From sequence record NC_070874.1: a stretch of DNA of 64,000 nucleotides; one strand, written 5' to 3'. Shown piece by piece: positions 1 through 39,800 of the stretch; within the stretch, counting starts at the first letter, position 1, and the number at the start of each line of letters is the position of its first letter. This DNA comes from Escherichia phage vB_EcoP-ZQ2. Under the pieces are notes generated by a model. It ran no database searches, was not told the origin of the DNA, and was given only the letters and a program-made list of their open reading frames with translations. The position numbers were made by a program, and so were the translations under genes.

Positions 1-561
1 ACCACATTGCAGTAAGAACTTGTTAAGTGCCCAAGGACCACTAGCAACAGTTTCCATTACATTCTCAAAAGTCTTGAGACGAATACCTTCGCCGAATACT
101 TCTTTAGGCTTGGCTTCTGAACCATAGAACGCAGTCATAACTGCCTGCTTAGTGTCACTACGTTTAATACGTGATGCTTCACCAAGGATATCCAGCATCT
201 TGTGATAGATGACTGTATAAGCATCACGGCGTAATGGCTTACCATTCTCTCCCATGTAGTTAACTACGTTACATAGTTCAGCAGCAGAACGGTCACCAGT
301 CAGACAAGCCAGTAACTGTAAGCCAGATGATGTAGCATCTAGAGCTACGGCATAACCAATAGGCTTACCTGCTTTCATATCTTTCCATGCGTTTACACCT
401 GCAAAGAACAGAGCAGAATCTTCAGCTTCATCTACCAGATTAAGCAGGTTAGCTTCGTTCTCATCGAACCAGGCAATACGTTCATCCCATGTCTTTTTAT
501 CTAAGCCATAGTTATTGGCGATATCTACTTTCAGGTATTCACGAGCGGTTAACAGTTGCAT
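1..561 (-). CDS. T7-like RNA polymerase catalytic subunit of a split heterodimeric RNAP (N4 RNAP II gp16-like); C-terminal part lies beyond the window start
   Basis: Minus-strand ATG at 561..559 with AAGGAA RBS 6 nt upstream; frame stays open to position 1 (absent from ORF track because no stop in window). Translation MQLLTAREYLKVDIANNYGL...KPIGYAVALDATSSGLQLLACLTGD aligns with the T7 RNAP segment around KPIG...AFDGSCSGIQHFSAMLRD (motif A Asp). Confidence 0.8.
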   Translation of the reverse strand, partial: MQLLTAREYLKVDIANNYGLDKKTWDERIAWFDENEANLLNLVDEAEDSALFFAGVNAWKDMKAGKPIGYAVALDATSSGLQLLACLTGDRSAAELCNVVNYMGENGKPLRRDAYTVIYHKMLDILGEASRIKRSDTKQAVMTAFYGSEAKPKEVFGEGIRLKTFENVMETVASGPWALNKFLLQCG

Positions 562-618
562 TTTATGTTCCTTTTGCTTCTTGGCTCCCCACTATGGAGA
601 GCCTGCTTATTGGATGGA

Positions 619-858
619 TTAGCCAGCATTAAATGATGACAATACTATTCCTGGTTCCACACCTTCGGTGGCAATACCCAGATACTCAACGTGCACTTTA
701 TCAGGAGAAGAACACCAAGAGGAGTATGCACTCCATTCTCCATCTGGGTTAATAAGACGAGCCTCTTCTACGGTTTTAGCAGCTACCACAGCAGAATCGA
801 ATGTATCCCAATCTGTATTCTCTTCCTGGCTAATAAGCCATAGTTTTAATCTACTCAT
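619..858 (-). CDS. hypothetical small protein (79 aa) inserted between the two RNAP II subunit genes
   Basis: ORF track; start overlaps the stop of the upstream subunit gene by 8 nt (translational coupling); no recognisable motif. Confidence 0.4.
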   Translation of the reverse strand: MSRLKLWLISQEENTDWDTFDSAVVAAKTVEEARLINPDGEWSAYSSWCSSPDKVHVEYLGIATEGVEPGIVLSSFNAG

Positions 859-1669
859 CGTTTACTAGCTCCTTATCAGCGAACTCCAGTACAGCTTTGT
901 TGTAACTGGTTCCCTGATAGTTGATGTGGTAACCACAGGCATAGGTACGCCCACGTTTGTCGTATTTGTGGGCCAGTGAGAAGTTATTACCTTCTTTGGT
1001 CACTAACTCCATTACTTCCTTGGCTGTACGGCTGTACTTCTCAAAGGCTTTAACACGTTTCTCATAGTCCTGACGGGTTTCACCTTCTTTGGGTTTATCC
1101 ATGTTAGGACGGGAGTCTTTTACATAGTTAGCAACGTCCCAGTTAATACAGAGACGTTGATTGTTCATACGGTTGATGTGGTCAAGACAGACATCCATCT
1201 CATGATGGTTCTTCTTGAGGATGATGCTACCTCTGCTTTCATAGTAACCAGTATCACGGTTACACTTAACAGGCTTAGGAGCACTTACGATAGGCAATGG
1301 ATACTGGAATGCTTCCAGTTCCATCTGTACATCTTCACTAATCTCATAGATAACACCGAACTTGTCGATGGTAGGGTCATAGTTGAAGCAATCATTCTCT
1401 GCCATCTTATACAGACAGTCAGCGATGTACTGAGCATCATCTGAGTGACTCATGAGAGAGCCAATCATAGTCTGGATGTCAGCACGTTTATGTAGGGCAA
1501 TCTGCACCATTGCATCAATGAGCAACTTATAATCAATTTCCAAATAGGCAGCGAATGCCTTAAAGTCAATTTCTTCGGAGTCCTCGAATTCCTTCCTCAT
1601 GCGAGGCAAGAGCTGATTTTTATTGAATAGTTTTTCGAGTTGCTTCTGATGTTCAATAGATGAGTACAT
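851..1669 (-). CDS. T7-like RNA polymerase N-terminal-homolog subunit of the split RNAP (N4 RNAP II gp15-like), 272 aa
   Basis: C-terminal KYDKRGRTYACGYHINYQGTSYNKAVLEF matches T7 RNAP DWRGRVYAVSMFNPQGNDMTKGLLTLA; the homology continues in the downstream partial ORF (1..561), so the polymerase is split into two genes. Confidence 0.8.
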   Translation of the reverse strand: MYSSIEHQKQLEKLFNKNQLLPRMRKEFEDSEEIDFKAFAAYLEIDYKLLIDAMVQIALHKRADIQTMIGSLMSHSDDAQYIADCLYKMAENDCFNYDPTIDKFGVIYEISEDVQMELEAFQYPLPIVSAPKPVKCNRDTGYYESRGSIILKKNHHEMDVCLDHINRMNNQRLCINWDVANYVKDSRPNMDKPKEGETRQDYEKRVKAFEKYSRTAKEVMELVTKEGNNFSLAHKYDKRGRTYACGYHINYQGTSYNKAVLEFADKELVNDE

Positions 1670-1692
1670 CGCTTATTCTCCTAAATGTGATT

Positions 1693-1720
1693 AATAACCA
1701 AAAGCTGCGGAGCAGCTATT
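1693..1720 (-). promoter_or_regulatory. N4-type virion-RNAP hairpin promoter (leftward transcription), upstream of the RNAP II subunit gene
   Basis: CCAAA-AGCTGC(1703-1708)-GGA(1709-1711)-GCAGCT(1712-1717): 6-bp stem, 3-nt GGA loop, CC 11-12 nt from loop centre; same architecture as the copies at 5068-5084 and 5960-5974 and as the N4 P2 hairpin as I recall it (GAAGC-GGA-GCTTC after CCAAAA). Confidence 0.6.
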
Positions 1721-1722
1721 AC

Positions 1723-1995
1723 CTATCGTTTAGTCCAAAAGGCAATACGAATACTGTTCTCGTGGTCAAGGTAGTCGATGCGTACATATAAGCCATTGCC
1801 TTTAAATTCATTACCTTTCCTTTGAAAAGGCCATACTTGACTACGCATGGGAATCTTAACTAAACCAGATATGTGACCCAGCTTAGTACGGATCTTTAAC
1901 TCGTTCTGTAATGCACAATAGATGTCATGTCGTGTAAGTGCTCTGGCTCTGACTTGAGCAGACCACAGTTCTTCATATGTCATTATTAACTCCAA
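1723..1995 (-). CDS. hypothetical early protein (90 aa)
   Basis: ORF track; lies directly upstream of the hairpin promoter at 1703-1717. Confidence 0.5.
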   Translation of the reverse strand: MELIMTYEELWSAQVRARALTRHDIYCALQNELKIRTKLGHISGLVKIPMRSQVWPFQRKGNEFKGNGLYVRIDYLDHENSIRIAFWTKR

Positions 1996-2336
1996 TAGTT
2001 GTAAGCATTACCTAAGTATTTACGCCATGCTTCTGGTAATAACACGTTGCCAGTAACATTGATGAACAGGTATGGGTCCAGAAAGTCATTACTCATGACT
2101 TTGAAATCCCACTGTGGATTAGAAGATGCATAGGCAATGAAGCCTTCAATAAAGCCATAGATAGCGCCCTCTTTGATACGGTTACCATTGCCATCCTTTA
2201 CTGGAATGGCAAAGCTATTACCACAATGACCATAGGCCATACCCCAACGAGCACCATGTTTCTTATAAGCTAACTTGGCAGCAGCATTGGTATGCTGCCC
2301 TAGTGTATTGGTAGTAAATACTAAGATTTCTTTCAT
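1986..2336 (-). CDS. hypothetical early protein (116 aa), Gly-rich N-terminal segment (possible nucleotide-binding fold, unassigned)
   Basis: ORF track; N-terminus ILVFTTNTLGQHTNAAAKLAYKKHGARWGMAYGHCGNSFAIPV; compact spacing to neighbours. Confidence 0.55.
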   Translation of the reverse strand: MKEILVFTTNTLGQHTNAAAKLAYKKHGARWGMAYGHCGNSFAIPVKDGNGNRIKEGAIYGFIEGFIAYASSNPQWDFKVMSNDFLDPYLFINVTGNVLLPEAWRKYLGNAYNYWS

Positions 2337-2338
2337 GA

Positions 2339-2659
2339 TTAATCCTTTGGTTTAAGTACCTGAAATGGGAACACAGGACGTTTACTACGCCACTGGTTCA
2401 TAGCCAATTCACTAGTTTCAGAACCATCATGTAAATCATAGATGAATGAGATTACATAGTCTGGTTCTTCCGGGAAGTTCTCTGTAGAGAAAGGTAGACC
2501 TGACTCCTTAAGAATAGGAACCAGTGGAGATTCAGCATTGCAGTACAGAGTAAACTCTTCATTGAATGCTTGGCTTGTTTGAGATACATAATCAATATTA
2601 CGCATCATCTTATCTACATCAGTAAATGTAGAATCATGAACTACTAAAATAGTTTTCAT
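2339..2659 (-). CDS. hypothetical early protein (106 aa)
   Basis: ORF track; 2-nt gap to the downstream gene and 4-nt overlap with the upstream gene, same strand. Confidence 0.55.
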   Translation of the reverse strand: MKTILVVHDSTFTDVDKMMRNIDYVSQTSQAFNEEFTLYCNAESPLVPILKESGLPFSTENFPEEPDYVISFIYDLHDGSETSELAMNQWRSKRPVFPFQVLKPKD

Positions 2660-2910
2660 ACCTTTCTCAATGTCCCATAGATGTTATTATCGACAATACT
2701 CAAATCACAAAAACCAATCTCTTCTTGTCTCCCAGAGGATACCCAGATATTGTTTTCTGTTAGCTTGGGCTTCTTAGAGAATCCTATCAGTGAGGTATTA
2801 GCACTCTTATACTGCCGAGTATATAGAGCTATATACTTAACCCAATGAGGCACTTGGATAGTATGTCCCATATATTCCACGTTCTTGCCTGTAGGATATG
2901 TAATAATCAT
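2656..2910 (-). CDS. hypothetical early protein (84 aa)
   Basis: ORF track; 4-nt overlaps with both neighbours. Confidence 0.5.
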   Translation of the reverse strand: MIITYPTGKNVEYMGHTIQVPHWVKYIALYTRQYKSANTSLIGFSKKPKLTENNIWVSSGRQEEIGFCDLSIVDNNIYGTLRKV

Positions 2911-3128
2911 TTCTGGTAACCTTCTATGAAGTTAGTACGACGAATGAGCTGAGTAGATGCTTTAACAGCTGTCTTCTTGAACTCATCTTTGTGTTGGTTT
3001 TCCAATATCCTATCCCATTCTTCCTGGTTCCGTCGTTTCTGTAGAATACGACTACACTTCTTATGATTAGCAACTCCTTTACGTTTGTTACATACAGGGC
3101 AAACACCATAATCAGTTGAGTACATCAT
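2907..3128 (-). CDS. hypothetical small protein with CxxC zinc-ribbon-like motif (73 aa)
   Basis: ORF track; CPVC...HKKC near the N-terminus, basic C-terminus. Confidence 0.5.
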   Translation of the reverse strand: MMYSTDYGVCPVCNKRKGVANHKKCSRILQKRRNQEEWDRILENQHKDEFKKTAVKASTQLIRRTNFIEGYQK

Positions 3129-3129
3129 T

Positions 3130-3375
3130 TTAGTTAAATCCGTAATAGTTAAAGTAAGGAGCCTTTCTGTCTTCGGTTGATTTGATAATCACTGACTCAT
3201 CCAGAAAGTACATCTTATTATTAATACGTACTTCTCTGTAAGATAGCTTACCAAAGTTACGTATATATACCTTTCTAACATATACCTTACGGGTATGCTT
3301 TAGCATGAACCAGGCATACCCTTTGGGATTCGCTAATATTGTTTTATCTACGATGACATCACTAAGATTGTTCAC
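3130..3375 (-). CDS. hypothetical early protein (81 aa)
   Basis: ORF track; operon-like spacing. Confidence 0.5.
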   Translation of the reverse strand: MNNLSDVIVDKTILANPKGYAWFMLKHTRKVYVRKVYIRNFGKLSYREVRINNKMYFLDESVIIKSTEDRKAPYFNYYGFN

Positions 3376-3676
3376 CGAGTGCCTCCATCAGTATCTTACG
3401 AATAACATTAACATCAGATTCAGTACCAATTAAGCCAACAGGCTTACCTGTACTATCTGTTACAAAGGATGCAATCCTTTCCATCTCTGCTGTAATTAAT
3501 TTATCACCACTAATAAGACGATTACGAAGGTAAGCCTCATAAGCTACCTCTACATCTTCTACTGTGGTTCTTTCATTACGAGTGAATGGATTGCTTAACG
3601 GGAATGGTAAGTGGATACGTATATTCCGGTCAGCTATCTTAGCTGAATGAGGGAGTATACAAACAATTTCATTCAA
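3362..3676 (-). CDS. hypothetical early protein (104 aa)
   Basis: ORF track; preceded upstream (minus sense) by a terminator hairpin. Confidence 0.55.
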   Translation of the reverse strand: MNEIVCILPHSAKIADRNIRIHLPFPLSNPFTRNERTTVEDVEVAYEAYLRNRLISGDKLITAEMERIASFVTDSTGKPVGLIGTESDVNVIRKILMEALGEQS

Positions 3677-3714
3677 GGTTATTTCTCCTATTTAAATACA
3701 TATCTAACTATTCA

Positions 3715-3747
3715 AGAATAAAAAATAGAAGCCCTCCTAATGGAGGA
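3715..3747 (-). terminator. rho-independent terminator (minus strand)
   Basis: Stem CCTCC(3733-3737)/GGAGG(3742-3746) with TAAT loop; in minus sense followed by CTTCTATTTTTTATTC. Confidence 0.5.
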
Positions 3748-3867
3748 CTCCTTGTTATTTGATACACGGATGATTGAAGGTAACAATCTTACGTACTGGT
3801 TCAGACGTCTGTTTCTTAACAGCCAGACGCTCTTTCATCTTCTGTACGTCTTCTTTGGTTCCCATGA

Positions 3868-4050
3868 TTAATGATTTACGCATGATTTAGTTGTCCACAT
3901 AAAGTTAAAAGGTTTATTGTTACGTACAATTCTTACAACCATTTGATAGCCATTGAGTTGCACAACACCATAGTGTCGTTTCTGTACACCAGTGTGATAC
4001 CTACGAAAGATACATTCTTCAATGGCATCTTCTATGTTAGTGAATATCAC
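3868..4050 (-). CDS. hypothetical small protein (60 aa)
   Basis: ORF track only. Confidence 0.35.
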   Translation of the reverse strand: MIFTNIEDAIEECIFRRYHTGVQKRHYGVVQLNGYQMVVRIVRNNKPFNFMWTTKSCVNH

Positions 4051-4094
4051 TGGTTCTCCCGTAATACTGACAATTGAGCACAGGTGAATAACGT

Positions 4095-4247
4095 TTACAC
4101 ATCTCCACCTGGTTCATCTCTACCACGAGCATCACTCCCTATGACTGCAAACATACCAATAATTACACCTACAGCTAATAACCATGGAAATGCAGCTACC
4201 AGCAGTATCATTAATAAAATGCACAGAATCTCTACCAGTAGCTTCAT
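4095..4247 (-). CDS. small hydrophobic membrane protein (50 aa), not in ORF track (below its length cut-off)
   Basis: Minus-strand ATG at 4247..4245 with AAGGA RBS about 7 nt upstream; translation MKLLVEILCILLMILLVAAFPWLLAVGVIIGMFAVIGSDARGRDEPGGDV; fits tightly after the 4252..4437 gene. Confidence 0.4.
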   Translation of the reverse strand: MKLLVEILCILLMILLVAAFPWLLAVGVIIGMFAVIGSDARGRDEPGGDV

Positions 4248-4251
4248 AGCA

Positions 4252-4437
4252 TTATCCTTTGTGAAGTTTACGGATTTGTTTACGAGTAGGTTTAGCTACA
4301 AAGAAGTGGTCATAACATTGACCATTTTCATCTTTTACGGATACCTGCCAACGTGCATTCAGTGACATCTTACTGCCCCATGGTTGCAACATAACAATCA
4401 TCTTCTGTGAGTTATAACGGTTACATAATGTACGCAT
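4252..4437 (-). CDS. hypothetical small protein (61 aa)
   Basis: ORF track; the overlapping plus-strand ORF 4084..4365 is judged spurious. Confidence 0.4.
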   Translation of the reverse strand: MRTLCNRYNSQKMIVMLQPWGSKMSLNARWQVSVKDENGQCYDHFFVAKPTRKQIRKLHKG

Positions 4438-4540
4438 AATGGTTACTCCTTCATCTAATATAAATCTATATCTATCTGGTTACTGTTTCAGTACCCTTCG
4501 TCTAAAGATACTCAAAAAGTAGAAATAGCTTATCGTCTAG

Positions 4541-4572
4541 TTAAAAATAAAAGACTCCCCGAAGGGAGTCTT
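4541..4572 (-). terminator. rho-independent terminator (minus strand)
   Basis: 9-bp stem AAGACTCCC(4551-4559)/GGGAGTCTT(4564-4572), CGAA loop, followed in minus sense by TTATTTTTAA; sits just after the stop of the gene ending at 4581. Confidence 0.55.
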
Positions 4573-4580
4573 GTAGTTGA

Positions 4581-4961
4581 TTAGAAAGTCAGTTTACGAG
4601 CATATTTATTCTCGTCTGCTGGGATGTCAGCAGCCTCTGCTTTCACGCGTCTTAGCTGAACTTGCAGGTTAATGATACCCTCTTCACCTGGTTCCAGGTT
4701 CTGAGCATATGCGATTAACTGTTCCAGCAAGTCGTTCTGTGCACAACGCATAGCACGGAAGTCAGCGTTGCTGCTATTAGTAGGCAGCGGTTCCTGAGTA
4801 TCCAGTGGAATACCAGTAGGCAGTGAGATGAATTTCTCATCATCAGAGCCTTCATTAGCTACATAACCAATGTTCAGCCAGAACTGAGCTTTTGGTTTGT
4901 CAGTTTTAGCAGTGGTAGCAGCAGCGTTAGATTGACCGAAAGTGAATTTTTGAATAGCCAT
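4581..4961 (-). CDS. hypothetical early protein (about 126 aa from the internal start MAIQKF)
   Basis: ORF track gives 4581..5054, but that N-terminal extension runs into the promoter hairpin at 5068-5084 and lacks an RBS; the ATG at 4961..4959 has a GGAGAG RBS 7 nt upstream. Confidence 0.5.
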
Positions 4962-5058
4962 TTTGTACTCTCCAGATTTATGTGATTTACGGGTGAACTC
5001 GTCGGTGAGAACACCCAAACAAAGGGATAAAAGTTCAATGATTAGTGGATGCATTTAC

Positions 5059-5084
5059 ATCATCCATAAGACGCGGAGCGTCTT
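5059..5084 (-). promoter_or_regulatory. N4-type virion-RNAP hairpin promoter (leftward)
   Basis: CATCCATAA-AGACGC-GGA(5075-5077)-GCGTCTT: 7-bp stem (5068-5074/5078-5084), GGA loop, CC 11-12 nt from loop centre; intergenic between the genes ending at 5090 and starting at 4961. Confidence 0.6.
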
Positions 5085-5089
5085 TATTT

Positions 5090-5305
5090 TCAGAATGGAC
5101 AGCTTGTTTCAGCTTCAAGTTTGTCCATGAAGTAGCCTGAGTTATGCAGATAAGCATGTAATTCAACATGCCCTTGCATACGGTATTCATCGAGTAAGGA
5201 GAGAAACTCTCCATACTCTTTATCTGTAGACCTTCTTGCGTTACTGAGGTCTACGGGTTTATTACTAAAGCAACTCTCAATCATACGGATATTTTCTACA
5301 TTCAT
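5090..5305 (-). CDS. hypothetical early protein (71 aa)
   Basis: ORF track. Confidence 0.45.
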   Translation of the reverse strand: MNVENIRMIESCFSNKPVDLSNARRSTDKEYGEFLSLLDEYRMQGHVELHAYLHNSGYFMDKLEAETSCPF

Positions 5306-5359
5306 GGATGACTCCTAATTGGTTGAAATGTATCCGTAAGCTGTGGAACAGCTTAGTTT

Positions 5360-5506
5360 TTACTTATCTGATAGCAGGATGGATTTTACTTTGTGACCAT
5401 TACCATAGTCAGTGTTTACCAGAGGTTTTACAATGTGAACGGAAACCATCACAACAATTGCAAGGACACAAACAGTTAAGATAAATGCGTTTTCTAGTTT
5501 GCTCAT
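5360..5506 (-). CDS. small hydrophobic membrane protein (48 aa), not in ORF track
   Basis: Minus-strand ATG at 5506..5504; translation MSKLENAFILTVCVLAIVVMVSVHIVKPLVNTDYGNGHKVKSILLSDK with one predicted transmembrane helix; fills an otherwise empty 290-bp gap. Confidence 0.35.
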   Translation of the reverse strand: MSKLENAFILTVCVLAIVVMVSVHIVKPLVNTDYGNGHKVKSILLSDK

Positions 5507-5564
5507 AGTAGGAATCTCTTTTAACTTTTTATGCAGAATAGTTGAACTATCTAATGCCCTTAAC

Positions 5565-5586
5565 AGGAGGCTCCTAAGAGCCTCCT
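5565..5586 (-). terminator. stem-loop after the gene ending at 5594 (terminator or RNA-stability hairpin; weak U tract)
   Basis: 9-bp stem AGGAGGCTC(5565-5573)/GAGCCTCCT(5578-5586) with CTAA loop. Confidence 0.35.
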
Positions 5587-5593
5587 AATTGAG

Positions 5594-5917
5594 TTATTCT
5601 TTAGTCAGGATGTCGATGACTTTGGAATATTCTGCGTTATAGATACGAGCGTTCTCAGAATCCTTGCAGAATTCCTCGATACTTTTCTTACGCAGAGTCT
5701 CAGTCATAGCTGTTTCCTCTGCCAGTTTATTAACGAATGTATGCATTTCTAATTTAGTACGAATGGCTTGTTTCTCTGCCATAGTACTTACATATGAATT
5801 AAGCATACCTACTGCTTTAGTTGCAGTACCAAAGGTATCTGCAACAGTAGTAGCAGCTGAGTTAACAGTACCAAGCAGAGTTCCTGCGGTCATACGTACA
5901 GTAGCTTGAGTAGTCAT
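5594..5917 (-). CDS. hypothetical early protein (107 aa)
   Basis: ORF track; first gene downstream of the hairpin promoter at 5960-5974. Confidence 0.55.
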   Translation of the reverse strand: MTTQATVRMTAGTLLGTVNSAATTVADTFGTATKAVGMLNSYVSTMAEKQAIRTKLEMHTFVNKLAEETAMTETLRKKSIEEFCKDSENARIYNAEYSKVIDILTKE

Positions 5918-5949
5918 GATGATAGCTCCAATAGTTGATGATAGGACGA

Positions 5950-5975
5950 CATGTCCATAACATGCGGAGCATGTG
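5950..5975 (-). promoter_or_regulatory. N4-type virion-RNAP hairpin promoter (leftward)
   Basis: GTCCATAA-CATGC-GGA(5966-5968)-GCATG: stem 5960-5965/5969-5974, GGA loop, CC 11-12 nt from loop centre. Confidence 0.6.
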
Positions 5976-6118
5976 TAACGTGTAAGGTGGGGTAGGGTAG
6001 TGGCTACACCGTCAACATACCGGGGGGGATGGTTGAGTGTAAGGGTGTAGCCCTAGGTGTACCACTGCAGCTGTACATAGCTATGACCAAAATGGTATGC
6101 AAAAATATGATAGCTATC

Positions 6119-30855: not shown

Positions 30856-33800
30856 TTGAACAGGAATCATGCTATGTCAACATTTGACCGTCTGGCAGGT
30901 TTCGCAGACAGCATCACTACTGCTAAGCAAGTCGATGTCTCTACTGCAACCTCTCGGAAACAAGCTGAACAAGGGCAAAACCCTTTCCAATTAACCCCAC
31001 AGAACGCCTACCAGTTACAGGCAGGTCGTGCCGGTGATTTAGGTGCTGGTGCATTTGACCCAGGTTCTATTCAGGCAGATTTTACTAATGCCTCTCCTCT
31101 TGAAATCATAAACAAGTATGGCAATGAGCAAGGAATGGACATTCTTAATGCTCGTGTCAATGCAGCTAATGCTGTTCGTCGTGATTTAACTAAGAGTCGT
31201 ACATATGGTGAAGCACTTGGTGATACCCTTTCTGGTGTTGGTCTTGGTGTTGCTAATACCCTTGGGGGCATTGCTGCTCTTGGCACAGGCTTGGTCAATG
31301 ATAATGCCGGGGCATCCATTGCTTCCGGTCTTGACTGGTTGAACAAAGGTGTACACAACCTACAGTCTGATGCACTGAATGCTCGTCGTAATGTAGTACA
31401 GAACCAGAACGTAATATCTGCACAGGAAAACGAAAAACAATATAAGCAGGATATTGATAAAGGAGAAAGTGAACTCGTTGCTTCCTTGTCTCGTATTGGT
31501 CGGGATGCTTACGATTCAGTTGCTAATACTTTGTCCAATGGCATGGCTGCTACAGATGGTATTGCTGAAGGTGTTGGTTCACTGTTTACTGGTGGTCCAC
31601 TTATCCGTGGTGTATCTGCACTTGGTAAAGTAATGGTAGGTGGGGATAAAGCTGTTAAGGGTATTACCTTAGCTGCTGAATTAGGTTATCGTCCTGCACG
31701 TATTGCACAGACTGCTGGTCGTGTTGCTGCACCTGCTATAGCAATTGGTGGTATGGAAGCTGGTGGTGCATACCAACAGACTGCTAATGAAATTATGGAA
31801 ATGCCATTCAGTGAACTGGCTGCTAAATCTCCTGTATACCAACAACATATTAAAGATGGTTTAACTCCTGAAGAAGCACGACGTCAGACTGCATCTGAAA
31901 CAGGTATCACTGCTGCTGGCTTAACCGCCCCAGTTGCTGCTCTCACTGGTCCACTGGTATCCAAGTTTGAACTTAACCCACTTAAGGTAGGTTCACTGGC
32001 TGGTGCTGGTTCTAACATGCTACGTGAGACTGTGGAGGAAGGTATTCAATCCGGTTTCGGTCAATTCGCACAGAACAAAGCAATTCAGGGTAACGTGGAT
32101 GCTAATCGTGATTTGCTTAAAGGTGTAGGTGAACAAACTGGTCTAGGTGCATTGTATGGCTTTGGTTCTGCTGGGGTTGCTCAAGCTCCTGGTGTAACTG
32201 CTAAGACTGCCGTTGCTGCCGTTGGTCCTGCTGTACGTACTACCCTGGCTGGTGCTTCTCTGGCTGGTAAGGCACTAGCAAAAGTAGCTTCTCCTATTAC
32301 TAACATTCTGGTTCAGCGTGGAGAAGAAGTTGCTAAGCGAAATGAGCAAGCATCTCCTGTATCAGACGTTACGGTTAATGCTGCTGCACAAGAAGCTACT
32401 GCTCAGGCAGAACAGGCTCAAGCAACTGTTCAGGAAGCAGTAGATGCAATGGACATTTCTCCAGAAGAGAAAGCTGCTGCTACTCAGTATGCTGCTGACT
32501 TAACTCAGGCAATGAAGTTTGACCCAGTAGAACTGGAACAAGCTAGTCCAGCAATCCGTGAAGCTGTTTCTGGTTCCACTAACCGTGTTGAAGCTATTCA
32601 GAAGATGGCTGACCTGGTTAATACTGCCGAAGATCCTAACGTTCAAATGGAAGCTGCAATCCAGATGTATGACAACATCATGTCTATGGATAGCTTCATT
32701 AACCGTGACCCAGGTGCATTAGCTAATCTGGAACAGGGTTCTCCTGCTGCTAATATTGTTGACCAGTTCTCCGGTCTGATGGCTAACGTTCAGAATACAC
32801 CGAAGGTACTTCGTGCATTCCGTGCCATCCATTCCATGATTCAGGAACAGGCAGAAGCAGGTAAACTGAAGGCTACTGAAGAAGCTAACCAAGCCCAAGC
32901 AAACAACATTGCTATGGCTGCTGATATGTCTCCAGAAGTACTGGATGCTGATTCAGTGAACATGGTTCTGAAACACGCAAGTGAAGGTAAGATTACGCTG
33001 GGGAATCGTCAGCGTGCTGCCCTGCAATCTGCTGCTGCTCTATTGCAAGGAGCACGAGAATTTGATGCTAAAGCAGAAGAGCTAGGCTTACGTCCTCAAG
33101 ACATTGTTAGTAAACAAATTAAAACCGACGAATCTCGTTCTAATGAAGGCCAGTACTCTGCGTTGCAACATGCTAAACGCATTCGTTCTGCGTATAACTC
33201 TGGTAACTTCGATTTGGCTTCCGCTTATCTCGATGACTTTATGAAGTTCGCCCAGCACATGCAGAATAAGGTCGGAGCGTTGAATGAGCATTTGATTTCT
33301 GGGAATGCGGATAAGAATAAGTCTGTCCATTATCAGGCTCTTACTCCCTCCCGTGAATGGGTACGTAGTCGTACTGGCCTCGGTGTTAATCCGTATGATA
33401 CCAAGTCTGTTAAGTTTGCCCAGCAAGTAGGACTGGAAGCCAAGACCGTAGCTGATATTGCTAACGCACTTGCTACGGCTTACCCGGAGCTTAATGTTTC
33501 TCATGTGAAAGTTACCTCATTGGATTCACGTCTGGACAAGCCTGCTGCCCAGGTAGTTAAAGAGTTCCGTCAGGGCAATCTTGACGCTGCTCAATCCCAA
33601 CAGACTAATGAACCAGTGAATCAGGTTGATGAAACTCCTGTTACAAAACAGGAACCAGTTACCCCTACTGTACAGACTAAACCCTCTGTTAGTGAAGCTG
33701 TTAAAACAGAACCCACTATTAAAGAGTCTAAACCACAGTCTGTAAAAGAACCTGAGAACCAGTCTGAAAAACAGGATACCGTTGATCAGTCTACTGAATC

Positions 33801-36800
33801 TGAAAGGGATGCTTATGTAAAAGAGAATACTATTTCTCAAGATACTCTTAATAAGTATGGCGACCGTAAAGAGAGTCCATGGCTCTTTGCTGATGGTACT
33901 GTTGTTGGTTCTAATGGTGACCACATTAGCTTGTCCGATGTATTTGGACATGATGGTTATCGTGATATGTCACTAGATACAGGTGCTATTCGCTCTACCT
34001 TCTACAAAGGAAGCGAGCAACCATTTGTATCATTGCAACTGTTTGATAATCAGAAACTGACTACTGAACAGTTCAATACTGTTCAATCATTCGTAGAAGC
34101 AAACAATGCACTGATTCAGATTGGTGTAGATACATCTGGGCTTAATACCAATAACGTTGAGAAAGAAGAAGTATCACTGGCTCAATTGAAAGCAGACTAT
34201 ACCGTTGGTGGTAAACCTCTATCTCAAATGGAAACAGTGTTCCCTGTCTATAACAATGAAAAGACACCGAACCAGTTCCTTAAAGCATTCTCTCTACCGG
34301 AAGAACCTAAGTCCCGTACCATTGGTTCTGAATCTCCTTTGACTGATGTTAAGAAAGCACTGTCTTCTGTTGCTCGCTTTGAATCATTCACTCAAAAAGA
34401 AAATAACGCTCTCACAAGTGATGTGATTAAGCGTTACCAGGACTTATTTGATTTTGGTGAAACTCTGAAGACTACTCTGTCTGACCGTCTGGCTAAGTTC
34501 CTTGCTAACAAGAATGTTGGTAAACGTTTTGCAGAAGGTACTGAGGCTAACCGTTGGGTAGGTGGTAAATTACTTAACATCGTAGAGAAAGACGGAGATA
34601 CCTTTAAGTTCAATGACCAGTTGTTAGAGACTGCTGTACTTGCTGGTCTGCAATGGCGACTGACTGCTACACAGAATGCTGCCATTAAAGACATGCAGGA
34701 TGTGGCTGCAATTACTGGTGTAAATGCTTCCTTGTTACCAGAAGGTATCCTTGCAGAGTTTGAGAATGCTCAAACCTTAGTAGAAGCTACTAACTCACTG
34801 GCTCAAAAGATTGAATCTTATTGGGGTCTTAACCGCAATGCTGATGCACCTCTGGGCTATACCAAAGGTATCCCGATGGCAATGGCTACAGAGATTCTGT
34901 CTTCCCTTATTGAGATGGGTGAAGTTAAAGAGTCCATGTTGGATGTGTCTGAAATTGACTCAGAATCTAATAAGACCATTGGCCTGTATACCATTGAGAA
35001 GCTGGATGATACCGACGCCATTAACAAATTCCCTACTGCTATTGAGGAAGCTGTCCTCATAGAACCAGAAGAGAAACTGTACCTGGGTGATGACATTCCT
35101 TCCGTGGCTCCTACTCAGTTACGTAACCCAGCTGTTCGTAATACCCCAGAACAGAAAGCTGCTCTTAAAGCAGAACAGGCTACAGAGTTCTTTGTACATA
35201 CCCCAATGGTTCAGTTCTATGAGGCGTTAGGTAAAGACCGTATCCTCGAACTGATGGGTGCTGGTACTCTGAATAAAGAATTACTTAACGAGAACCACGC
35301 TAAATCGCTGGAAGGTAAGAACCGTTCAGTAGAAGACTCTTATAACCAATTGTTCTCTGTTATTGAACAGGTAAGAGCACAGAGTGAAGACATCTCTTCT
35401 GTGCCTATTCATTATGCATACAATATGACCCGTGTCGGTCGTATGCAGATGTTAGGTAAATATACCCCCCAATCAGCTAAGCTGGTTCGTGAGGCTATCT
35501 TACCTACCAAAGCTACCCTGGATTTATCGAACCAGAACAACGAGGACTTCTCGGGCTTCCAGCTTGGACTGGCTCAGGCATTGGGTATCAAAGTTCATAA
35601 AATGACTCGTGAAACTATGTCAGAAGAACTTACCAAAGCTCTGGAAGGTAAGCTGAAACCTGCTGTAGATATGATGGTTGAGTTTGATAAGTCTGGATAC
35701 TTACCTACTGATGCAGTGGATATCTTGAGAACATCTCTGGGTAATGATAAGTCCTTTGTAGCTCTCATGGCTCTTATGGAGTATGCCCGTTACCTTAACA
35801 GTGATGACCGTGCCAACTTTAATACTCCTCTGTACGTTGAAGCTGATGGTGTAACCAACGGACCAATCAACGCAATGGTATTAATGACAGGTGGTAAGTT
35901 CACTCCAAACTGGATTAAGAATACTGCCAAAGGTGGTTTGTTCTTCGGTAAAGCCGGTAAGACTATGAATGAGCATCATACTCAGGATGATAGTGTTGAC
36001 CTGTATGAAGCATCTACCAATAGTCTGCAATTCCATCTGAATGAATTACGTAATACTTATAGTAAGAATATTCCTGTTATAAACCAGATGGACCATCTCC
36101 AGAAGTTAATGGACCTGTTCATCAAAGACTTCAATCTTAATGAAGATGGTACTCTGGACCTGAAACGTGGTATCGCTAAAAACCCACTAACCATTACTAT
36201 CTATGGTTCTGGTGCTCGTGGTATTGCAGGCAAAATGGTAAGTGCAATTACTGATACCATCTACGAGCGTCTAAGCGACGTTCTGAAAGCCCGTGCTGCT
36301 GACCCTAACATTTCCCCAGCTATGGCGATGTTTGGTAAGGAGGCTGCGTCTGAAGCCGATGCTCAGGCTAAGCTGGATACTTTCCTTACTTCTATGAAAG
36401 AACTGACTGGCAAGATTCCAGCCAAACGTAAAGGTAGGTTATTTATTAAGGAAGTAGAAGGTGCTCTGACTGGCAAGTTAAATCCTCAGAAGTTTACCGT
36501 ATCAGGGGATGCTCTGAAGAACTTACAAGAGAATATGCTGCACTTCTTTGTTGAGCCAATGAGACAAGGTATTCGGTTTACTGTTGGTGAAGGATTAATG
36601 CACTCTACTGAGAACTTGCAGAAGGCTACCCAGATTCAATCTCTGGTATTGCAGGATATGTTCCAGCAAGCAGTACAGGCTAAGCTGGCAGAAAAAGAAA
36701 AAGACCCAACATGGAAGAAAGGTGATTTCTTAACACAGAAAGAACTGAATGAAATTCAGAATAGCTTAGCTCCTCTGGCTCCAATGATTAAAACTGGTTC

Positions 36801-39800
36801 GCAGACTTTCTACATTGCTGGTAGTGAGAATACTGATGTTGCTAACCAAGTATTGGCTACTAACTTAGATGACCGTATGCGTGTACCAATGAGCATCTAT
36901 GCTCCTTCGCAAGCAGGTGTTGCAGGTATTCCATTTATGACCATCGGTACTGGTGATGGCATGATGATGCAGACTCTTTCTACTATGAAAGGTGCTCCGA
37001 AGAATACCCTGAAAATCTTTGATGGTATGAACATTGGTATTAATGACATTACTGATGCAAGCCGTAAAGCTAATGAGGCTGTATATACTTCCTGGCAGGG
37101 TAACCCTATCAAGAATGTATATGAGTCTTTCTCTAAGTTTGTTAAGAATGTTGATTTAAATAAGCTGTCCGATTCAGCAATAGATGCTATTGCAAAGTCT
37201 GCTTTAGACTTTGAGCAGCGTGCTCATATTGCCAGGGTAGATGGTGATAGAGATTATAAAATTTCTATGATTAGAGATTCTGGTATTGCATTAATTGAGC
37301 GTAACCTACGTAACATTGCTTTGGGTGTAGATATTCGTCACAAGGTAATGGACCAGGTACAAGTCACTGTTGACCAGATGGCTGCTGTAGGTGCTCCTTA
37401 TGTGAACAACGGTAAAATCTCTCTGGAAGGTCTGACTATAGACCAGCAAGTAGCCAAGCTGAACGAACTGTTTGATGCTGAATTAAACAAGCGTCGTGAT
37501 GCAGTACGTGCTGCTAAAGCGGAACCAACGAAGGCAGAACCAGTGAAGGAAGTGCCGGTGAAAGTTGTACCAGCTATGGAGAAGGTAGGTCGTGTACTGA
37601 AGTCTGGTGTACGTCTGCTGTCTAATACTGCTATCACTAAGCTGGCTAAAGAAATGACCCCTGATCAGCAAGCAGTATTGAAAGAAATACAGAAATCCCT
37701 TGCTGCTAAAGACTATAAGGTTGTTTACGGTACACCTTCTCAACTGGATGCTTATGCCATTGAGAAGAATATTACTCGCCCAGCACCGGAAGATATTGAA
37801 GCTGCTGAAGCTGGTAATGCATACGGCTGGACTAACTTTGAAGATAAGACCATCTACTTAGTTACCCCTTCCTTAGAGACTCTGGTTCATGAATTAGTAC
37901 ATGCCTCTACTTTTGAATCTGTGCTGGCTCACTACGAGGGTACTCCTAATGAAGCAGTCCAGAATATTGAAGACTTGATGAACCAGTTCCTTACTCTGGA
38001 TGTTAAGGATGAATCTCCGGCAGTACGTGAAGCGTATGCCGATGCACTGAATACCATTAATGGTCACCTGTCTAATGGCTTCATTGAACCAGCAATGGCT
38101 AAAGCTGCTGCTCTGAATGAGTACATGGCTTGGGGTTTAACCAACCGTGAACTTATTAGTAAGCAGAAGAAAACCACTGCACTTAAAACTATGGTTCAGG
38201 CTGTATATGAAGCAATCAAACGTCTGGTATTTGGGCGTAAGAAAGCTCCAGCTAATGCAGATGATATGTTCTCAGGCTTACTGTTTAACTCTGCTGTAGT
38301 AATGCGTGGGCAGGCTCCTACTGCTGCTGTAGCTAAAGACACTACTCTGTTCCATAACAAAGCATACGGTAACAATACTCGTCTGGAAGAGTTAGGTAAG
38401 ACCTTCGATAAACTAATTACTGACTACATTGGTTCAGAACCAGTACAGCAAGTAATTCGTAAAGGTAAGTTCTCTGATGCAGTAGTGAATGCAACTAAAG
38501 TAACTCGTGATGTTCAGGCTCATGGCTTCACCATGAATATGCAGGAACAGCGTCTATTTACTAACATTGTTGCTGCACTTGCTACTGAGGCTGCTATTAA
38601 CCCAGCAGCCATGGCTCGTGCACAGGAATACTACACGCATGTTACTAAGAACTTGACCGTTGAAGCGTTCATGGCTGACCCAGATAGTACTAACCCTGCT
38701 GACCGTTACTATGCACAACAGAAGTTCGACACCATCATGGGTGCTAACAACATTGAGTTTGATGCACAAGGTCGTTCTTCCTTACTGCCTACCTTTGTTG
38801 GTCTGGCAATGGTAAGTGAAGAGGTACGTAAGGTACTGGCTGATATTCCTGTTATGAAAGCAGATAAGAAATCAGGTAATACTGTTGACGCAATGCTGAC
38901 TAACATCGGTACTGCTGCAATGGTTAGTCTGAATGCTCGTGTAGCAGGTGATACTAAAGCCACTAACGTGCGGGAAGGTATGGATGCACTGGCTCAGACA
39001 ATTATGGAGACTAGCCTTAATGCACAATCTTTCTATGATTCCGTTGCTACCCCTACTGGTAATGCTATCGACCGTGCTAACCAATATCTGGTGGATTCTA
39101 TTGATGTACTGTCTACTCGTACTTTGGAAGGTGCTCGTGAAGTTGCAGCTAATACCAAGAACCCACTAGTTAAAGGTGCTGCTCATGCTGCACAATTGGT
39201 AGCTGCTATTGCTACAGAGAAAAATGGTGCAATTGTAGCTGAGGGTGTTATGGCTGCAATGAACCAGGGTAAAGTATGGCAACCGTTCCATGACCTGGTT
39301 AATGACATAATCGGTCGTACTAAGAGCAATGCTTCTGTATACGATTTGATTAAAGCAGTACGTGCACAGGTGCAAGCTGACCGTCAACAGTTCCGTGAGC
39401 ATTTGCCTACCACTATCGCATCTAAGTTCAGCCGTAAGCTGACTAATGATGAGTGGAAAGCAATGCATACCGGTATGGGTAAAACTGACTTAGCTGTTCT
39501 TCGTGACACTATGTCTCTGGCTGAAATCCGTGACCTGTTGACTGACCAGAAGATTGTTGACCGTGAGGTTAATAAACTGGAAGCAGATTTGCAGAAGCAA
39601 GCCGGACGTAACTGGCCTCTGATTAGTCGTAAGTCTAAGCAACTGGCTCAGTACATGATTAATGGTACAGTCGGTAATAACCTGCTGCGTAATGCTACTG
39701 CAATTTCTCGTTTACTGGGTGAACGTAAGACTACACGTTCTGTTGTAGATGTAGCACAACTGGATAAATTGATTACCCTGTATGCACTGGAAGCAATGAA

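Follow-up and report, generated by a model that had tools for sequence, protein, structure and literature searches.

The early promoters P1-P3 of phage N4 are experimentally mapped initiation sites that were characterized by Haynes and Rothman-Denes in 1985, Glucksmann in 1992, Dai in 1998, Davydova in 2007 and Gleghorn in 2008, as summarized in a review (PMC4496689). According to this review, the determinants recognized by the virion RNA polymerase (vRNAP) are a GC-rich heptamer centred at -11, flanking inverted repeats and a C:G closing pair, together with a 5' G and a 3' A in the loop, -11A/G, -10G, -8G, +1C and an A-tract that acts as a ruler. The stem is 5-7 bp long, and its non-conserved bases are free to vary if pairing is kept. 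The closing C:G pair was found necessary for hairpin extrusion, and residue D901 of the polymerase contacts -9C (PMC4496689). DNA of the type d(GCGNAGC) forms extraordinarily stable mini-hairpins (Hirao; PMC13037366), and for GCGGAGC mini-hairpins with a GGA loop the KD of mini-vRNAP binding is about 2 nM (PMC13037366). The middle promoters of N4 are sequence motifs starting with T and not hairpins (PMC9163698).

In the N4-like Pseudomonas phage LUZ7, hairpin early promoters were confirmed by mapping of transcription start sites (TSS) with ONT-cappable-seq (PMC9163698; prediction in PMC3715699). They are vRNAP-dependent and resemble the sites described below in having a stem of at least 4 bp, a conserved 3-nt loop and an initiating G, but LUZ7 is more distant, infects a different host and has nine early TSSs, which lie 13-14 nt from the hairpin centre and not 11 as predicted here. 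For Klebsiella phage KP8, a member of a sister genus, four putative early promoters P1-P4, predicted by similarity only, are annotated ('early promoter' features in NC_048700; PMC6950046, Table 1). The GenBank records of G7C and SP5M carry no promoter features, and a literature search on early promoters specifically in G7C-group phages found no paper. Here we describe the predicted early promoter hairpins of Escherichia phage vB_EcoP-ZQ2 (NC_070874.1), a G7C-like, N4-type coliphage with a Gamaleyavirus genome; the window is the whole stretch of 64,000 nt that was analysed. The defining promoter features were taken from PMC4496689 and PMC13037366.

Genome setting

The early region occupies positions 1-6056 of the window in reversed orientation, with the physical left end at approximately 6053-6058. 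In relatives, the records end at positions that correspond to 5660 and about 6056, and positions 6-411 of N4 (NC_008720) align to 6053-5660. The segment equivalent to the terminal repeat (5660..6056) is present as a single collapsed copy; a second copy was looked for in the window and none was found. Four hairpins were located, all on the + strand, which is the template for the minus-sense early genes, with loop centres approximately 90 bp (P1-type site), 710 bp (fourth hairpin, hp4), 980 bp (P2-type site) and 4350 bp (P3-type site) from the left end at about 6056. As in N4, the P1-, P2- and P3-type sites all fall in the genome's leftmost 10%.

The three canonical hairpins

A preceding sequence-only reading had reported three + strand hairpins at 1698-1717, 5064-5084 and 5955-5974, with stems of 6-7 bp, GGA loops and a CC dinucleotide whose distance from the loop centre, on the 5' side, is 11-12 nt. 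It had placed all three between genes, each of them upstream of a gene in minus sense. Sequence reading and hairpin scan agree that these hairpins are real, and each of the other features was recovered at all three sites, the ORFs in question being 851..1669, 4581..5054 (or 4961) and 5594..5917. The count of three proved incomplete, in that a fourth copy of the same geometry lies on the same strand at 5334-5355.

The predicted P1-type promoter (5955..5974, +), identified by sequence, hairpin scan, motif count, orthology to N4 P1 and end mapping, has a 6-bp stem (5960-5965/5969-5974), the loop GGA at 5966-5968 with its centre at 5967, and CC at 5955-5956. It is situated within the terminal-repeat segment, upstream of the gene for the 107-aa gp1 homolog (5594..5917, -), which is 67% identical to N4 gp1 and would be the first gene of the P1 transcript; RNA synthesis is predicted to start at template C5956 and to proceed leftward, in minus sense. 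The predicted P2-type promoter (5064..5084, +), supported by sequence, hairpin scan, motif count and orthology to N4 P2, has a 7-bp stem (5068-5074/5078-5084), the loop GGA at 5075-5077 with its centre at 5076, CC at 5064-5065 and a predicted start at C5065. It lies upstream of the gp2 homolog (4581..5054, -), which has 67% identity to N4 gp2, an RNAPII cofactor, over the full length; the long form of this gene starts at 5054, an alternative start with a ribosome binding site (RBS) is located at 4961, and relatives are annotated either way. The predicted P3-type promoter (1698..1717, +), supported by sequence, hairpin scan, motif count and near-identity to N4 P3, has a 6-bp stem (1703-1708/1712-1717), the loop GGA at 1709-1711 with its centre at 1710, and CC at 1698-1699; its predicted start, C1699, is 29 nt upstream of the start codon (ATG) of the gene for the 272-aa homolog of the RNAPII small subunit, N4 gp15 (851..1669, -).

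The heptamer GCGGAGC with the C:G loop-closing pair (-9C:-13G) is found at 1707-1713, 5073-5079 and 5964-5970. It is the N=G member of d(GCGNAGC), with a heptamer Tm of 73 °C, although the latter mini-hairpin is a structural motif and not a promoter family. The loop is GGA in all four hairpins, i.e. a central purine at -11 flanked by a 5' G (-10) and a 3' A (-12); -8G is located at 1707, 5073, 5343 and 5964, +1C at 1699, 5065, 5335 and 5956. The 4-nt spacers read AAAA (1698 site), ATAA (5064 site), GTAA (5334 site) and ATAA (5955 site).

Comparison with N4 (NC_008720) bore out the proposed N4 early promoter architecture: the three sites are positional orthologs of P1, P2 and P3, and every determinant listed in PMC4496689 is present. 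N4 P1 (acatgtCCATAAGTTGC-GAA-GCAACgtgtaacg, upstream of gp1) corresponds to 5955-5974 of the window (acatgtCCATAACATGC-GGA-GCATGTgtaacg), N4 P2 (catCCAAAAGAAGC-GGA-GCTTCTT, upstream of gp2) to 5064-5084, and N4 P3 (ttaCCAAAAGCTGC-GGA-GCAGCTT, upstream of gp15) to the near-identical 1698-1717 (taaCCAAAAGCTGC-GGA-GCAGCT). Both phages share the GCG(G/A)AGC core at -11, -8G, +1C/+2C, a 4-nt A/T spacer and a 5-7 bp stem with variable but complementary outer bases, as well as the strand, the downstream genes (gp1, gp2, gp15), the distances from the left end and the position of P1 inside the terminal repeat. They differ in the P1 loop, which is GGA in the window and GAA in N4, in compensatory changes of the stems (P1, ACATGC in the window versus GTTGC in N4; P2, AAGACGC versus AAGAAGC), and in the extra site between gp1 and gp2 in the window, which N4 does not have.

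Occurrence and conservation

As the sequence-only reading had proposed, the motif was counted against shuffled sequence. Across the 64-kb window CCN7GCGGAGC has three matches where 0.07 are expected (0 of 100 shuffles reach three), and GCGGAGC itself occurs only three times on both strands, each time at a canonical site. For the full motif, defined by at least 5 bp of stem, a GRA loop and CC, four occurrences were counted against a mean of 0.2, and 0 of 300 shuffles reach four. Only the combined geometry is enriched: the heptamer by itself is not (3 observed, 2.49 expected), and GRA-loop hairpins without the CC requirement are enriched only mildly (9 versus 4.1; 11 of 300 shuffles reach nine). 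No further sites with the promoter determinants were found when the 64-kb window was scanned. In DNA folding the P1 site with its flanks is indistinguishable from shuffles (z = -0.8), because a neighbouring ACATGT palindrome competes.

For covariation, instances were chosen by sequence alone (CCN7GCGRAGC), without a stem requirement, in 543 kb of related loci from 13 related genomes. The early template strand carries every one of the 42 matches, and in all 42 three further Watson-Crick pairs form outside the heptamer. The stem covaries strongly, with 96.1% of cells paired and five of the six pairs changed on both sides; the score was reached by 0 of 500 shuffles, and slid controls were 12-52% paired. 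The -8G and +1C columns are invariant in 34 distinct instances, and the hairpins are orthologous in every relative compared. A search for related loci by the gp15 homolog yielded 8 close IMG/VR loci only.

The virion RNA polymerase

The enzyme predicted from sequence to read the hairpins is encoded at 30856..41691 (+), where the longest ORF comprises 3611 aa, is similar to N4 gp50 and is annotated as 'virion RNA polymerase' in relatives. Its identity to N4 gp50 amounts to 68% for the protein as a whole and to 73% within the mini-vRNAP domain. Ten of 11 promoter-contact and catalytic residues are kept (K114, R119, W129, K268, K849, K850, D901, R904, D559 and D951). The exception, K267, is N in the window enzyme; in N4 it is one of the two vRNAP lysines that melt the stem base, and its substitution counts against the early-promoter reading.

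Proposed mode of action

On the evidence observed (sequence and geometry of the sites, motif statistics, orthology to N4, covarying stems and conserved polymerase contact residues), the three canonical hairpins serve this N4-like phage, with a probability of roughly nine in ten, as early promoters for the injected, virion-encapsidated RNA polymerase. Promoter function is assigned by orthology. Initiation itself and its dependence on gyrase and SSB are carried over from N4. By that analogy the left genome end would enter the cell first, and host gyrase would supercoil the entered DNA, so that the inverted repeats extrude as hairpins. The GCGGAGC core of the template (+) strand would form an unusually stable mini-hairpin, with a C:G closing pair and a sheared G:A loop pair, which would survive SSB binding. 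The vRNAP would recognize -11G, -10G, -8G and +1C, melt the stem base, use the 4-nt A/T spacer as a ruler and start with G opposite the C located 11 nt from the loop centre. Minus-sense 5' ends are predicted at 5956 for the gp1 homolog, 5065 for the gp2 homolog and 1699 for the RNAPII gp15 homolog; the sequence-only reading had placed them likewise 11 nt from the loop centre, in accord with N4 numbering.

A fourth, non-canonical hairpin

The fourth hairpin, hp4 (5334..5355, +), was detected by hairpin scan and reads CC-GTAA-GCTGT-GGA-ACAGC, with an 8-bp stem (5337-5344/5348-5355) in the window and 5-7 bp in relatives. It retains -8G, -10G, -11G, -12A, +1C and the spacing. Its closing pair is T:A (-9T:-13A) as against the canonical C:G, the core being GTGGAAC at 5343-5349, outside the d(GCGNAGC) class; because it lacks the C:G closing pair, hp4 is classed as a variant and not as a canonical member. 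The change from C:G to T:A is compensatory, with pairing kept, and DNA folding gives z = -3.3. The predicted start, C5335, is 30 nt upstream of the ATG of a 71-aa ORF (orf71, G7C gp1.2 homolog; 5090..5305, -).

The hp4 core and the whole leader up to the RBS form 37 contiguous columns that are invariant in 8 genomes of two genera. Of the 92 columns that precede them, which are mostly coding sequence of orf71, 24 vary in the same genomes; indels occur in this alignment just past -17. A hairpin is always present at this distance from orf71: it is canonical in St11Ph5, and hp4 is kept in CU10EC despite a different upstream cassette. In KP8 the promoters follow the same order as in the window, before the gp1 homolog, a 71-aa ORF, the gp2 homolog and the RNAPII small subunit, with GGA loops and CC starts. 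The second KP8 promoter, upstream of the 71-aa gp004, is canonical (AAGACGC-GGA-GCGTCTT), in contrast to the T:A-closed hairpin of the window; tblastn did not detect gp004 as an orf71 homolog, and KP8 P4 precedes an extra small ORF ahead of the gp15 homolog. A scan of IMG/VR for the hp4 pattern gave matches in G7C and pSb-1 only; the wider hp4 survey drew on GenBank phage records.

Alternative explanations

That the hairpins are functionless chance inverted repeats in AT-rich intergenic DNA has a negligible probability. The unenriched heptamer and the mild enrichment of GRA-loop hairpins would suit it, but it is refuted by the counts of the combined and full motifs, the strand-restricted, sequence-selected matches and the covarying stems of orthologs in every relative; moreover, every copy is intergenic, on one strand and no further than 4.3 kb from the end of the genome. 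Intrinsic (rho-independent) terminators or attenuators, acting on antisense + strand transcripts at the 5064 site and hp4 and on minus-strand read-through at the 1698 site, are very improbable as the main function. A simple terminator scan does flag three of the hairpins together with the sequence after them: 5068-5084 (+) with TATTTTCAGA, 5337-5355 (+) with GTTTTTACTT and 1717-1703 (-) with TTTGGTTATT. In relatives, a T-run regularly comes after the internal hairpins on the template strand. Terminators, however, do not need the invariant GGA loop, -8G/-9C or CC at a fixed distance of 11-12 nt, the P1-type site has no T-run, and the ORF list contains no + strand genes in the hairpin region to be terminated. 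The minus strand carries stronger canonical terminators at 4572-4551 and 3752-3727, and at the N4 orthologs initiation has been mapped by experiment (PMC4496689). A secondary terminator or attenuator role may exist beside promoter function. Middle (RNAPII) promoters were rejected because those of N4 are non-hairpin and the window sites match the vRNAP definition.

For hp4 the weighing is closer. It probably works like the other three, serving the 71-aa ORF from position 5335, but with the T:A closing pair it would be expected to extrude and to be bound less strongly. The fuller reading, which we hold tentatively and at slightly less than even odds, is that hp4 is a working, T:A-closed vRNAP promoter, selectively maintained in at least 8 Gamaleyavirus and Moovirus genomes. 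In that case either the C:G pair and the GCGNAGC mini-hairpin would be dispensable in vivo, or weaker extrusion would set another timing or another supercoiling threshold for the 71-aa ORF; in a related proposal, hairpin promoters would act as recombination joints of small early-gene cassettes. A decayed copy, or a structural or recombination relic riding with the orf48-orf71 cassette, is a serious possibility at about two chances in five. Such a non-promoter would agree with -9T in place of -9C, since in N4 extrusion and stability require the closing pair and D901 contacts -9C (PMC4496689), with the position of hp4 outside the mini-hairpin class and with mosaic breakpoints that fall at its edges. 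Against it stand the invariant core and leader next to variable columns, the compensatory nature of the change with all other determinants kept, the constant presence of a hairpin before orf71 and the folding score.

Implications

The three canonical sites are expected biology, with nothing new beyond counterparts of N4 P1-P3; the fourth, slightly off-consensus copy is the sole mild surprise, and it is an element of a known kind, as KP8 already has four annotated. A reader of raw sequence can recover the unusual hairpin promoters that N4-like phages form in single-stranded DNA, and the precise predicted early starts (minus-strand 5956, 5335, 5065 and 1699) are usable for annotating this G7C-like genome, whose relatives are mostly without promoter annotation. 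That hairpins and mosaic junctions coincide is a hint as to how these phages exchange early-gene cassettes. The conserved, T:A-closed hp4 offers a natural test that separates features of polymerase recognition from those of DNA extrusion: if it works as a promoter, the closing C:G pair and the GCGNAGC mini-hairpin would be dispensable in vivo, although both are regarded as necessary for extrusion in N4.

Genome layout and early genes

The early region of Escherichia phage vB_EcoP-ZQ2 (NC_070874.1) is ~88-94% identical to that of Gamaleyavirus (G7C-like, N4-type) coliphages, and the gene of the virion RNA polymerase (vRNAP), the enzyme injected with the DNA, is at most 94% identical to those of pSb-1, St11Ph5 and EC1-UPM; these identities make the phage a member of Gamaleyavirus. 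The record ends of many relatives map to window position ~6056, others start at ~5660, and window 6053-5660 aligns to N4 positions 6-411. Segment 5660-6056 is therefore equivalent to the terminal repeat, with the physical left end at ~6056; the record is permuted and runs in reverse orientation, its repeat collapsed to a single copy. The last ~80 bp of this segment (5980-6060) are G-rich (gggtagggtag, ggggggg) and ~76% conserved with the N4 left end.

Leftward from 6056 the early gene order is that of N4: the gp1 homolog (5594-5917), two small ORFs, the gp2 homolog (4581-5054), about 12 small ORFs and the homolog of gp15, the small subunit of RNAPII (851-1669), with the three named homologs on the minus strand. 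It is ambiguous where the gp2 homolog starts (4961-5054), and relatives are annotated with either the long or the short form. The long-form start at 5054 is 10 nt away from the start predicted for P2, with no obvious RBS, and a second ATG at 4961 is preceded by GGAGAG; the 31-aa extension is similar in N4 (in the comparison of the window with N4, a 20-letter stretch against MHPILYEILTFCLGLLTDK). Strong intrinsic-terminator-like hairpins occur on the early (minus) strand at 4551-4572, after the gp2 homolog, and at 3727-3752, and after the gp1 homolog, at 5565-5590, there is a GC-rich hairpin that has no clear U-run. A single tRNA, tRNA-Ile with anticodon AAT, was predicted in the middle-gene region at 43103-43177 (minus strand).

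Predicted hairpin promoters of the early region

The sequence-only reading had reported three plus-strand hairpins with a GGA loop and an upstream CC, and the sequence is exactly as given there: ACATGC-GGA-GCATGT at 5960-5974 (P1-type, CC at 5955-5956), AAGACGC-GGA-GCGTCTT at 5068-5084 (P2-type, hp2, CC at 5064-5065) and AGCTGC-GGA-GCAGCT at 1703-1717 (P3-type, hp1, CC at 1698-1699). Their intergenic placement was likewise borne out, each being flanked by minus-strand ORFs. The count of three was short by one, as a search of the entire window for GGA loops on perfect stems of 5 bp or more found six sites on both strands, four of them on the plus strand within 1703-5974; the fourth, hp4, is TAAGCTGT-GGA-ACAGCTTA at 5337-5355 with CC at 5334-5335, upstream of the 71-aa ORF orf71 (5090-5305, minus strand). 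The small orf48 (5360-5506) lacks a dedicated hairpin promoter, and its expression would rely on read-through from P1.

N4 promoters are conserved from -17 to +1 and carry a GC-rich heptamer centred at -11 between inverted repeats; extrusion and stability need a C:G loop-closing pair with a 5' G and a 3' A in the loop, the specifically recognised bases are -11A/G, -10G, -8G and +1C, and an A-tract ruler sets the start eight nucleotides from -8 (PMC4496689). All these features are present at the three reported sites, where setting the loop centre as -11 places the template +1C at 1699, 5065 and 5956; the 5' ends predicted earlier, ~11 nt from the loop centre, agree with these positions. GCGGAGC belongs, as the form with N=G, to the d(GCGNAGC) mini-hairpins, which are extraordinarily stable; for binding of GGA-loop promoters by mini-vRNAP, the polymerase domain, PMC13037366 gives a KD of ~2 nM.

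An identical scan of N4 (NC_008720) recovered three template-strand sites, ccataaGTTGC-GAA-GCAAC at 90-102 upstream of gp1, ccaaAAGAAGC-GGA-GCTTCTT at 557-573 upstream of gp2 and ccaaAAGCTGC-GGA-GCAGCTT at 4546-4562 upstream of gp15, which are positional orthologs of window 5955-5974, 5064-5084 and 1698-1717, respectively. The flanks are conserved between the two phages and the stem differences are compensatory. The P1 loop is GAA in N4 (95-97) and GGA in the window (5966-5968) and most relatives. The proposed N4 early-promoter architecture is thus supported by both features and position.

The 3611-aa vRNAP ORF (30856-41691) shares 68% identity with N4 gp50, rising to 73% within the mini-vRNAP domain. 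It retains K114, R119, W129, K268, K849, K850, D901 and R904 as well as the catalytic D559 and D951; of the residues compared only K267 differs, being N (mini-vRNAP numbering; residue 1372 of the vRNAP encoded here). K267 belongs to a pair of lysines that reportedly melt the stem base of the N4 promoter. The longest ORF begins with TTG and, when aligned, extends ~108 residues beyond the N terminus of N4 gp50; a different start and an N-terminal insertion are both compatible with this.

Chance, termination and covariation

Chance inverted repeats are excluded by motif enrichment, by stems found at sites selected on sequence only, and by stem covariation. The GCGGAGC heptamer is confined to the three reported sites, a count not in itself above chance in the window (3 against 2.49 expected), but CCN7GCGGAGC occurs three times against 0.07 expected and the relaxed CCN7GYGGARC four times against 0.89. 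In the comparison with shuffled sequence that had been proposed as a check, the complete motif, with CC, GRA loop and a stem of 5 bp or more, was found four times against a mean of 0.2, and 0 of 300 dinucleotide shuffles reached four; relaxing the loop or allowing one stem mismatch gave no credible further site in the window. Across 13 related genomes (N4, KP8, Moo19, G7C, SP5M and eight IMG/VR or GenBank relatives) the early regions each carry 3-4 template-strand hairpins at the same gene junctions. When instances were selected by CCN7GCG(G/A)AGC alone, with no stem required, all 42 matches in 543 kb fell on the early template strand and all 42 had three extra Watson-Crick pairs outside the heptamer. 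Over 34 distinct instances, pairing in the 6-pair helix reaches 96.1%, with both-side changes in five pairs and a covariation score reached by 0 of 500 shuffles; sliding the partner by 1-3 columns lowers pairing to 12-52%. Single-stranded DNA folding gave three of the four sites as predicted (z between -3 and -4); the P1 site is not distinct (z = -0.8) because a neighbouring ACATGT palindrome competes.

The hairpins could also be read as intrinsic terminators, since hp2 and hp4 on the plus strand and hp1 on the minus strand were picked up by a terminator scan, and in relatives a template-strand T-run typically comes after the internal hairpins. P2, the extra promoters and hp4 are followed by such runs (tattttca, gtttttac, ggtttttaag; window 5085-5092, 5356-5363), which are terminator-like in the opposite direction. 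P1 and P3, however, have no template-strand T-run, a terminator role leaves the invariant loop, -8G/-9C and the CC unexplained, and the N4 orthologs are mapped start sites. The T-runs may reflect a secondary terminator role or AT-rich flanks that aid extrusion. Read in the RNA sense, P3 is followed by UUUGGUUAUU.

The fourth hairpin

Hairpin hp4 (5334-5355) keeps -8G, -10G, -11G, -12A, +1C and the correct spacing, with the closing pair -9T:-13A instead of C:G. By the N4 rules it retains the polymerase-recognition bases and lacks the extrusion closing pair and -9C, the contact of D901. The core GCTGT-GGA-ACAGC precedes the 71-aa ORF in eight genomes that represent two genera, namely the window, pSb-1, EC1-UPM, G7C, E20, F22, CU10EC and, from the other genus, Moo19. 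Aligned, the eight show no change over 37 columns that run from the leader through -17; in the 92 columns before these, 24 vary, and indels occur just beyond -17. In St11Ph5 the ORF and leader are shared but the hairpin is canonical, aataGAAGC-GGA-GCTTC, and CU10EC keeps hp4 with orf71 despite a different upstream cassette. A hairpin thus accompanies the ORF in every case, at a constant distance, and hp4 has the look of a selected element, not a decayed one; the odds are somewhat in favour of hp4 being a working promoter, probably weaker or differently regulated.

Standing and implications

The GenBank record of KP8 lists four "early promoter" features, described in its paper as P1-P4 and found via similarity to N4, and these follow the layout of the four sites in the window. 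LUZ7, LIT1 and PEV2 have predicted early promoters of the hairpin kind (PMC3715699); for LUZ7 they were confirmed by mapping of start sites, which lie 13-14 nt from the hairpin centre (PMC9163698). No promoters are annotated in the G7C and SP5M records, and our literature search found no paper on hairpin early promoters in the G7C group. At the three canonical sites the sequence-only reading correctly recognised an already well-known element in a new relative, with hp4 a modest variation on that known promoter type. Homology between the window and St11Ph5 stops exactly at the +1/+2 CC (window 5335; St11Ph5 L022 895-1010), and that with CU10EC just past the 3' arm (window 5354-5356; CU10EC L021 895-1010). 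Such mosaic breakpoints exactly at the hairpin edges suggest that hairpin promoters act as junctions at which small early-gene cassettes located between gp1 and gp2 can be exchanged.
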